A stretch of DNA of 64,000 nt from Oceanispirochaeta sp. (GTDB taxonomy: Bacteria; Spirochaetota; Spirochaetia; DSM-2461). The stretch lies in assembly GCA_963663385.2 (NCBI GenBank), contig CAXXXD010000002.1:1632001-1696000 (forward strand), in the 5' to 3' direction. The notes below the pieces were generated by a model that ran no database searches, was not told the origin of the DNA, and saw only the letters and a program-made list of their open reading frames with translations. Of the stretch, positions 41,845-43,128 are shown one piece after another; within the stretch, counting starts at the first letter, position 1, and the number at the start of each line of letters is the position of its first letter. Both the position numbers and the translations under genes were made by a program.

Positions 41845-43128
41845 TTATTCATCAGCAAATAAATCTTTGAGTCGTCTTGATCTTTTAGGATGTCTTAATC
41901 TTCTAAAAGCCTTAGATTCTAAGAATTCAAAATCATCAATATCAAGATCAAGTTTTTCACAAATTTCCTCATCAGAAATGAAATTAATATTTGTAATATA
42001 TTTTGAAAGTATTATTTCTTTTTCAACATCTGGCAATGTTTCTATGCTCTCTTGCATCAAGTCATAGATTTCCTTTTCACTGTATTTGGTTTTTAGTCTA
42101 GGATTTCGTTCCCCAAATATACGACCAATCAATGTTACCACTAGTTCAATATTTCTTTCATTATTTAATGATTTTAAGAATTCAATTTCCTTAATAGTTG
42201 ATTGTACTTGAAGTTCATCGTTTTTATCTATTTTCATTATTTTGTAATTCTGTGCATACTTTATGAATTCATCTATGCTATACATATAAAAAAGTAGATT
42301 GGTTTCATCAGAAAATTCATTTATCAACTCTGGCCTAGGACCTAATATTTTTTTTCCATCTTTCAACCACCAATCTTCTTTAGTTTCATTTGTGATAAAT
42401 ATGATTGATCTTTTTTCTTTTTTTGCTTTTTCTAGAATTTGATTCCAAATAATTAAATCACCAAATTTCTTTAGATTCTCTTTTTCTTTACTATCCATAT
42501 AACCAGGAGGAATACTATTCTGATATCTAAAATCCCCAATTTTCTCTATTTTCTGAAGTACATCATAAGAATATTTTTCACCAATGCAGTTATCAAAAAT
42601 ATCTGAGACTTTTTCCAAAATAGAATCTGAAACAAGTAATTTAGTGTAATAATTTCTGTATCTCTTTAACTGAATAAAATCATTATATTTGTAAATTGAT
42701 TCAATTGATTCATTTACAGCCTCTAATTCATATTCAAGTTCATTCAGAATATTACTTGTATTAGTAATAAATGGATGGCGCTTTTCCATTTTTGGATTTT
42801 GTCTAAACTTATTCAATTCCTCAATAAATTTCTTTTTAAATGATTCTTTCAAGACACTTTCACTCTCTTCAAATCGCTCGTAAATTCTAATCTGTTCTTT
42901 GATTACTGCAATACGATTATCATGATATTCATGAGCGACTTGATAAGGTAACCATAGTCTATTACTTTTTATTGAGTTGAGTATTTGAATAACATTCTGA
43001 CTTGATTCTTTAGAATATCTATATAAATCTAATAGAACATTTGTATCAAAAACAAAAATACAGTTATTCCATAATTCACTGAATATTTTCTGGTCAAAAT
43101 CATAATATCCTTTTAGAACTTTTCTCAT
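41845..43128 (-). CDS. PIN-like ribonuclease (DUF4935-type) with a C-terminal sigma70 region-4-like domain; cassette gene
   Basis: [54 protein letters not shown]; C-terminus ...[21 protein letters not shown]. Confidence 0.85.
   Translation of the reverse strand: [427 protein letters not shown]

Follow-up and report, generated by a model that had tools for sequence, protein, structure and literature searches.

A PIN_8 nuclease with a C-terminal copy of sigma region 4 in a spirochete defense island: a possible decoy-triggered effector

We analyzed a stretch of 64,000 nucleotides (nt) from Oceanispirochaeta sp. (assembly GCA_963663385.2, contig CAXXXD010000002.1, positions 1,632,001 to 1,696,000 of the forward strand), here called the window, and focused on a minus-strand gene at window positions 41845..43128 whose 427-amino acid (aa) product, P0001, consists of a PIN_8 nuclease, a helical linker, and a copy of sigma region 4. 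A reading made from the letters of the window alone (the sequence-only reading) had described this protein as a PIN nuclease fused to a mimic of sigma70 region 4 and had suggested that the mimic might be a decoy that switches on the nuclease when a phage attacks the host sigma factor. The observation is confirmed, and the decoy interpretation is partly supported. The best explanation is that the gene was acquired horizontally and encodes, on its own, a nuclease effector of the uncharacterized PIN_8 family; the last ∼77 residues of P0001 are a true homolog of group-1 sigma region 4.

Domains of P0001 and the mosaic character of its tail

The sigma region 4 copy (regions 4.1 and 4.2) occupies aa 350-425 (41854..42081, minus strand) and was identified by profile, BLASTP, and fold alignment. 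The NCBIfam model RpoD_Cterm matches aa 349-423 with an expectation value (E) of 6.2e-5, and the NCBIfam sigma models cover only aa 347-424, at scores far under their cut-offs. Comparison of the tail with RpoD of the host by BLASTP yielded 31 identities in 82 positions (E 3e-11). When a profile of four fusion proteins was searched against the sequences of the PDB, 70 matches were obtained, the best being the SigA chain 7l7b_F (E 2.7e-15, positions 349-427); all 60 of the 60 matches shown are sigma factors, with no PIN chain among them. Alignment of eight fusion proteins (described below) with 11 sigma factor C-termini of the host's phylum by hhalign gave Prob 99.65 and E 3.9e-25 over 77 columns, corresponding to aa 350-425 of P0001. 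The predicted fold of the tail was matched by VIA-align to HrdB (7vpd_F; Z 9.4, root-mean-square deviation 2.2 over 79 residues) and to Taq SigA (4xln_F; Z 9.1). A Foldseek search of the PDB with the whole model gave no row at E ≤1e-3; its top rows were all sigma chains, and 7kug_D and 8cwr_B were local matches with prob 1.00. The NCBIfam, BLASTP, PDB profile, hhalign, and VIA-align results bear out the assignment of the tail as a sigma70 region 4 domain. The sequence-only reading had proposed that the tail be compared with Sigma70_r4 by HHpred or Foldseek; hhalign, the PDB profile, and the fold match all support the relationship, whereas the Pfam Sigma70_r4 model (PF04545) leaves P0001 unmatched even at E ≤10, whether the whole protein or its last 93 or 160 aa are searched. 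The same model does match relatives, as in P0123 with 46.4 bits versus a cut-off of 24.1. Neither Sigma70_r2 nor Sigma70_r3 of Pfam matches P0001, which lacks region 2 as well as the residues that read promoter DNA and is therefore not itself a sigma factor. An extension of the homology into sigma region 3.2, hinted at by genome-scan hidden Markov model matches at model positions 298-427, was rejected; hhalign confines the homology to aa 350-425.

Conservation within the tail is strongly uneven. Four sigma factors besides RpoD are encoded in the 5.3-Mb host genome, and the tail of P0001 matches RpoD, unlike those four, which differ from its signature. Identity to host RpoD is found at 17 of the 22 last aligned positions, including an unbroken run of 14/14 at aa 409-422 (41863..41904, minus strand), compared with 14/60 at the other positions. 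Within this run the DNA differs in 14 of 42 bases and nine of 14 codons, among them a serine codon (TCA versus AGC), and on the basis of these differences the 14-residue run is no recent copy of the resident rpoD and was held at the protein level. The guanine-plus-cytosine content (GC) of the P0001 gene is 26.5% (18.9% at third codon positions, GC3), versus 42.2% (GC3 42.8%) for host rpoD; the gene is therefore foreign. The segment PKRSRRLKD is the form found in RpoD of the host's class (L013, L014, L015, L021, and L028), and PSRSQKLKS stands in its place in another family of the host's phylum.

The opposite was found at the head of the former -35 recognition helix, Asp394-Glu404 (41917..41949, minus strand), which has a net charge of -6. 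Here Ile397, Asp398, Asp399, Glu401, and Phe402 replace R, E, R, R, and Q of host RpoD, which we take to be the positions of TRERIRQ in sigma70 that read the -35 element. Two observations of the sequence-only reading, that the recognition helix has been replaced by an acidic one and that the patch nearest the C-terminus is closely retained, therefore hold: all five reading positions are changed, whereas the patch is kept in eight of eight fusion proteins and the 14-residue run of P0001 is identical to host RpoD. Its further claim that the domain is unlikely to bind promoter DNA stands only in part. P0001 has none of the reading residues, and two key arginines are missing from seven of the eight fusions, but one fusion, P0125, keeps TRERIRQIE.

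The nuclease domain spans aa 24-268 (42325..43059, minus strand) and includes a long helical insert at approximately aa 62-177. It matches Pfam PF18476 (PIN_8) over model positions 1-227 of 227 with E 3.1e-63 and 214.2 bits, versus a gathering cut-off of 26.1. Four acidic residues, Asp28, Glu67, Asp224, and Asp252, are kept in 246 of 246 aligned family members and all four are present in P0001, the PIN active site of which is intact. In the AlphaFold2 model, which was built on four fusion proteins and has a mean predicted local distance difference test score of 73, residues 18-303 were aligned by VIA-align to PIN/VapC folds (1y82_A, Z 9.0 over 147 aa; 3zvk_A VapC2, Z 8.4; 6sd6_C, Z 7.2). On the basis of the Pfam score, the acidic residues, and the PIN/VapC-like fold, the three features that define the family, P0001 is a PIN_8 member, in agreement with the PIN nuclease and catalytic acids that had been recognized from the letters. 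The helical linker between the two domains, aa 269-349 (42082..42324, minus strand), has helices at aa 302-322 and 325-337 in the AlphaFold2 model, is particular to the family of P0001, and is without homology to sigma region 3.

The open reading frame (ORF) ends in the C-terminal residues that had first been quoted. A relative of P0001, P0002, is 428 aa long and shares 57% identity with it across 96% of the query length; because the lengths match, the frame is taken as complete and uncut by the flanking mobile elements. The gene is the self-contained cassette that had been described: it adjoins no co-oriented gene, a group II intron starts 149 nt upstream of its start codon, and a truncated copy of the intron ends ∼12 nt beyond its stop codon. 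The 148 nt between the start codon and the upstream intron (43129..43276, minus strand) contain a GAGGA ribosome-binding site (43133-43137) and short inverted repeats only, with no consensus sigma-70 promoter, no ORF, and no repeated operator-like motif. A promoter scan of the region as a whole returned seven promoter-like sites versus 9.6 expected, and no terminator was found in the combined promoter and terminator scan.

The eight fusion proteins and the PIN_8 family

Among 1.84 billion representative proteins searched with a profile, 4,565 matched at E ≤1e-30 and were taken as the PIN_8 family. The tail is carried by five of the best 150 representatives (P0001, P0123, P0124, P0125, and P0152); the addition of P0002, P0003, and P0004, relatives at the 90% level, to these five clusters brings the fusions to eight distinct sequences. 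Among 401 sampled genomes of the host's phylum, one contains the fusion, namely the host itself. When the best 80 PIN_8 loci of each kind were inspected, the tail was present in 0/80 from species-representative genomes, 1/80 from metagenomes (L118, on a 2.2-kb contig), and 0/80 from viruses. Counts of fusions from two large contig scans are lower bounds, and a word search with the tail alone, which gave 198 candidates and recovered only one RpoD, is uninformative on other fusions. Most fusions lie on contigs of 2-3 kb, with P0152 on a 43-kb contig and the P0123 cluster on contigs of 10-14 kb. The sequence-only reading had proposed a survey of such fusions and their defense-island context; it yielded eight fusions, with P0001 in a defense island, but the fusion is rare.

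Within the patch A.RRLRHP.R, all eight fusions retain A, R, H, P, and R, and seven retain L and the second R. At the reading head of the recognition helix, the first Arg is kept in one of eight (read off the alignment), Glu in four, the next Arg in one, the last Arg in five, and Gln in three; an acidic helix head is likewise present in P0003 and P0124. The hydrophobic pattern of region 4.1 is largely present, with the two residues of TL kept in six and eight of the eight sequences, E in six, and G in seven. When presence of the tail was mapped onto a quick FastTree phylogeny of 241 PIN domains, four changes were counted, of which well-supported branches force at least two. From these sequences, the tail was probably captured more than once, or captured and then lost in some lineages.

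In the only publication that we found to treat it (2017, PMC5499597), PIN_8 is listed as a VapC-group PIN family with "Function unknown". We found no publication naming PF18476, none joining a PIN-like domain with sigma region 4 and anti-phage activity, and none joining integrated decoys with anti-phage defense and a sigma factor; a search for sigma factor mimics together with nucleases returned unrelated literature only. Among 158 genome and metagenome loci, a co-oriented gene lies within 60 nt upstream of PIN_8 in 31 and downstream in 17, and the largest cluster of related neighbors comprises nine loci. Because these clusters are small, we conclude that PIN_8 has no conserved partner or antitoxin.

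The C-terminal additions of 118 PIN_8 representatives are mostly unannotated and helical. Sigma70_r4 was found in four of them, a count inflated by selection of the set with a profile that includes the tail, and each other domain was found in one, including single examples of a GerE/LuxR helix-turn-helix (HTH) and an OST-HTH. Two side observations concern the tail in other arrangements. In a Peribacillus locus (L052), an open frame at 7370-7879 (called ORF 7430-7879) lies directly upstream of a tail-less PIN_8 gene and gives a weak match to the tail model (E 7e-4); it has no Pfam family, and a two-gene form of the pairing of nuclease and tail is possible. A search of the ESM Atlas with the tail, which left out clusters with Sigma70 regions 1.1, 1.2, 2, or 3 or the non-essential domain, returned small proteins of 80-96 aa comprising region 4 only, several of their clusters viral, with scores of 0.90-0.92; we regard these as leads only.

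PIN_8 members travel with defense islands, prophages, and plasmids. Neighborhoods were annotated with Pfam for 37 loci (148 ORFs); from 92 non-redundant loci with two called genes per side, the first 37 by locus order were taken. A clear defense gene flanks PIN_8 in 12 of these, three show weaker signs, five have mobile-element genes only, and 17 have neither; the defense neighbors in the 12 loci include GmrSD-type genes, McrBC, Mrr, type I restriction-modification (R-M), methylases, Shedu, Hachiman, and an AbiEii-type ATPase. GmrSD-type genes adjoin PIN_8 in four of the 37 loci (L038, L048, L051, and L073), and in L075 (6804-12586) the PIN_8 gene lies within a type I R-M operon, between hsdS and hsdR. 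Relatives on mobile elements amount to 99 viral stretches and 73 plasmid records, P0001 matches phrog_9788, and the annotation of the plasmid relatives and of one in a deposited phage is only PIN-like or hypothetical.

A separate observation was made in 37 prophage and viral loci. In 14 of them PIN_8 lies no more than two called genes from a phage sigma factor (phrog_1190) or a late activator (phrog_248, 1058/36, or 532), these being the viral loci L203, L204, L208, L209, L210, L213, L220, L230, L231, L233, L238, L240, L241, and L242. The regulator is the next gene in 13 and the second gene in L230, and the pair lies between the replication and packaging modules. This position may be only a hot spot for accessory genes, or PIN_8 nucleases may be functionally tied to the sigma-like regulators of phages.

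The defense island around the gene

The P0001 gene is located in a low-GC island at ∼19-57 kb of the window (GC 0.27-0.46 at ∼18-56 kb, versus 0.48-0.53 beyond ∼56 kb). A tyrosine integrase gene at 55729-56955 (plus strand) marks the right edge of the low-GC stretch and is the likely island boundary. The defense genes are on the minus strand and include a type III R-M system (res, 29301-31985; mod, 31985-34177), followed by a gene for a DUF3800 protein (34178-35032; PADLOC candidate PDC-M04A), and, between two intron copies, Abi_alpha (PADLOC candidate PDC-S47, E 2.6e-33), which is followed by a DUF2441 gene (the two span 45266-46476). A Lamassu system, complete but missed by Pfam alone, extends from 48625 to 53070 with a GC of 27-32% and comprises LmuA (48625-50295, E 9e-42), LmuB (50414-52381, E 9e-135), and LmuC (52378-53070, E 1e-68). 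No phage structural genes were found near the P0001 gene within the window.

One group II intron is present in at least six copies at 22387-55267, all on the plus strand among the minus-strand defense genes. Its reverse transcriptase/maturase ORFs are at 25495-26775, 43883-45163, 47216-48496, and 53842-55122, with two shortened ORFs at 23496-24527 and 35851-37044 and intron fragments at 22387-22803 and ∼41629-41833 (all plus strand). The full copy upstream of the P0001 gene spans 43277-45267 (plus strand). Four full-length copies are identical over their aligned 5′ and 3′ ends except for the last two bases of the 26k copy; the 3′ alignment also took in the 41.6-kb fragment. An IS66-family insertion sequence (IS) element on the minus strand (tnpC, 37088-38650; tnpB, 40810-41271; tnpA, 41271-41567) interrupts an intron copy over 37088-41567 and is itself split by a plus-strand IS21 element (istA, 38827-40110; istB, 40107-40871). 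Further IS66 pieces lie at 18928-19831 and 27255-28817.

Function of the sigma region 4 copy and comparison with known systems

The reading we favor, tentatively and at somewhat less than an even chance, is that the region 4 copy baits proteins that bind sigma region 4 and that their engagement releases the nuclease. The copy would act as a protein-recognition module instead of a DNA reader and would substitute for region 4 of the host sigma factor, such that AsiA- or gp67-like phage factors that inhibit or appropriate sigma would bind the copy too. Binding of the ligand would release or activate the PIN nuclease, and the freed enzyme would cut RNA and thereby abort the infection, by analogy with fused toxin-antitoxin sensors such as CapRel. 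Such a mechanism accounts for the DNA face having been discarded or made acidic while the remainder stayed sigma-like, and for the location of the module where PIN_8 proteins vary. Phages commonly seize transcription via the host sigma region 4. There is precedent for a bearing of sigma appropriation on an abortive RNase system: asiA mutants of T4-like phages escape ToxIN, and AsiA binds sigma70 regions 4.1 and 4.2 (PMC5449768).

Several points weigh against this proposal. P0125 retains the complete TRERIRQIE, and P0004, P0123, and P0152 retain its R and Q; with helices such as that of P0125 kept, a loss of DNA binding cannot be claimed for all of the fusions. The C-terminal patch is conserved in 11 of 11 aligned primary sigma factors, and the A.RRLRHP.R segment, which every folded group-1 region 4 retains, may have a purely structural role. 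Only eight distinct fusions were found, and the comparison of the tail with the RpoD of its own host is from one genome. PADLOC-DB 2.0.0 has no model for P0001 (its match to MTase_II, at E 0.047, is at chance level), and the neighborhood counts derive from crude ORF calling without a matched control. Neither a phage of the host's lineage nor a phage protein that binds region 4 was identified, and we infer throughout the binding of phage proteins by the tail, the gating of the nuclease, and the role in phage defense.

An alternative is that the tail is an address label that binds the beta-flap tip of RNA polymerase, bringing the nuclease to the RNA exit channel to cut nascent RNA or compete with sigma. 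The same anatomy is expected from such docking, and loss of DNA reading would be harmless to it: the C-terminal helix of sigma region 4 packs on the beta-flap, and the copy keeps the region 4 fold, the hydrophobic pattern of region 4.1, and this C-terminal helix. The match to RpoD of the host's class is also what binding to the host's own polymerase needs. We nevertheless consider docking unlikely. A nuclease held on the host polymerase would be toxic, yet no antitoxin or regulator gene accompanies it; the wide variation of PIN_8 C-termini, only four of 118 with Sigma70_r4 and most with no known domain, is left unexplained; and isolated sigma region 4 binds the flap weakly. Complex prediction of the tail (aa 345-427) with the beta-flap of the host (L198:3805-4254), run without controls, gave scores of 0.31 and 0.23 versus a mark of 0.32, which weigh neither for nor against docking. 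The helix-turn-helix and Arg-rich end might instead bind DNA in autoregulation or hold an RNA substrate. The intact -35-reading helix of P0125 and the R and Q of three other fusions are in keeping with this role, as are the HTH domains of other PIN_8 proteins and a very basic 13-residue segment in the tail. For P0001, however, the acidic helix disfavors it, with a head of charge -6, acidic also in P0003 and P0124, and all five base-contacting positions replaced; moreover, the 148-nt upstream region offers no operator-like repeat, and a merely basic tail need not match RpoD over 14 residues with nine of 14 codons changed. We judge a nucleic acid-binding role to be quite improbable overall, but it may apply to members like P0125.

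Equally improbable in our estimate is that the PIN_8-sigma4 protein is a tool with which a prophage or island hampers transcription of the host or of a rival, as an anti-sigma-like competitor combined with an RNase, for takeover, addiction, or exclusion of competitors. The abundance of viral and plasmid relatives, the match to phrog_9788, the 14 of 37 viral loci beside a phage sigma factor or late activator, and the foreign composition of the gene amid introns and IS elements all fit this explanation. Against it, accessory genes are known to gather at that place in prophages, accessory nucleases carried by prophages often serve in superinfection defense, and the window lacks phage structural genes near the gene; in practice the explanation also overlaps with the decoy mechanism. 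It is very unlikely that the sigma tail is a neutral or decaying accident with no function of its own. The rarity of the fusion, as described above for the phylum genomes and the best genome and viral loci, is what such an accident would predict, but the tail is kept in eight sequences whose PIN domains are 33-57% identical, eight positions are kept in at least seven of the eight, and stop codons and truncations are absent.

In its broadest form, the favored decoy mechanism would make P0001 a bacterial "integrated decoy" immune protein in which seizure of sigma by a phage sets off abortive infection, with the C-termini of PIN_8 proteins serving as a library of baits; we hold this extension to be doubtful. 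To our knowledge, discussion of how bacteria notice an attack on sigma has so far been limited to indirect sensing by way of a shut-off of transcription, as in the case of ToxIN. If the decoy mechanism is correct, P0001 would be a simple example of decoy-based sensing in bacteria, comparable to the integrated decoys of plant immune receptors, in which takeover of transcription is surveyed directly through mimicry of the target. A first entry to the function of the large PIN_8 family (>4,500 representative clusters at E ≤1e-30) would be gained as well. Were docking correct instead, P0001 would be targeted to the RNA exit channel, likewise an unusual arrangement for a nuclease.

Compared with other PIN_8 proteins, P0001 is typical in its full-length model match, acidic quartet, long helical insert, and mostly monocistronic gene organization, and differs in the tail, carried by only a handful of members; most PIN_8 proteins have unannotated helical C-termini. 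It shares the PIN fold of the VapC type with VapBC systems but is three times the size of VapC, and it is not a VapBC pair because no antitoxin gene adjoins it. The tail resembles region 4 of group-1 sigma factors (RpoD/SigA) over 77 residues, in its four- or five-helix fold, in A.RRLRHP.R, and in the 14-residue run, and differs in lacking regions 1-3 and in having I, D, D, E, and F at the -35-contact positions. T4 AsiA/MotA, gp67 of Staphylococcus aureus phage G1, and the host protein Rsd represent the kind of ligand that the tail could capture; the sigma chains of 1tlh, 4g6d, and 2p7v are among the PDB profile matches, and we take their partners to be region 4 binders of the AsiA/MotA, gp67, and Rsd kinds.

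Two systems offer closer parallels. In the PhyR-NepR-EcfG system, PhyR carries a receiver domain, mimics regions 2 and 4 of an extracytoplasmic function sigma factor, and controls a stress response. P0001 would share with it a non-transcribing, sigma-like bait for a sigma-binding protein; it differs in that its mimicry is confined to region 4 of the primary sigma factor, the fused domain is a nuclease, and the gene lies in a defense island. CapRel(SJ46), the subject of work by Zhang et al. in 2022, is said to combine an N-terminal toxic enzyme with a variable C-terminus proposed to restrain the enzyme and to recognize a phage protein. P0001 is likewise a single polypeptide encoded by a solitary gene on mobile elements. 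The CapRel(SJ46) enzyme is a RelA/SpoT-like pyrophosphokinase, whereas that of P0001 is a PIN domain and its C-terminal module is a copied host domain; CapRel(SJ46) senses a phage structural protein, whereas P0001 would sense an attack on the host, and autoinhibition in P0001 is putative. By analogy with these systems, P0001 appears to pair two known kinds of component, a PIN toxin-like effector and a sigma mimic, in a combination that differs from its precedents in the enzyme, the domain mimicked, and the setting.

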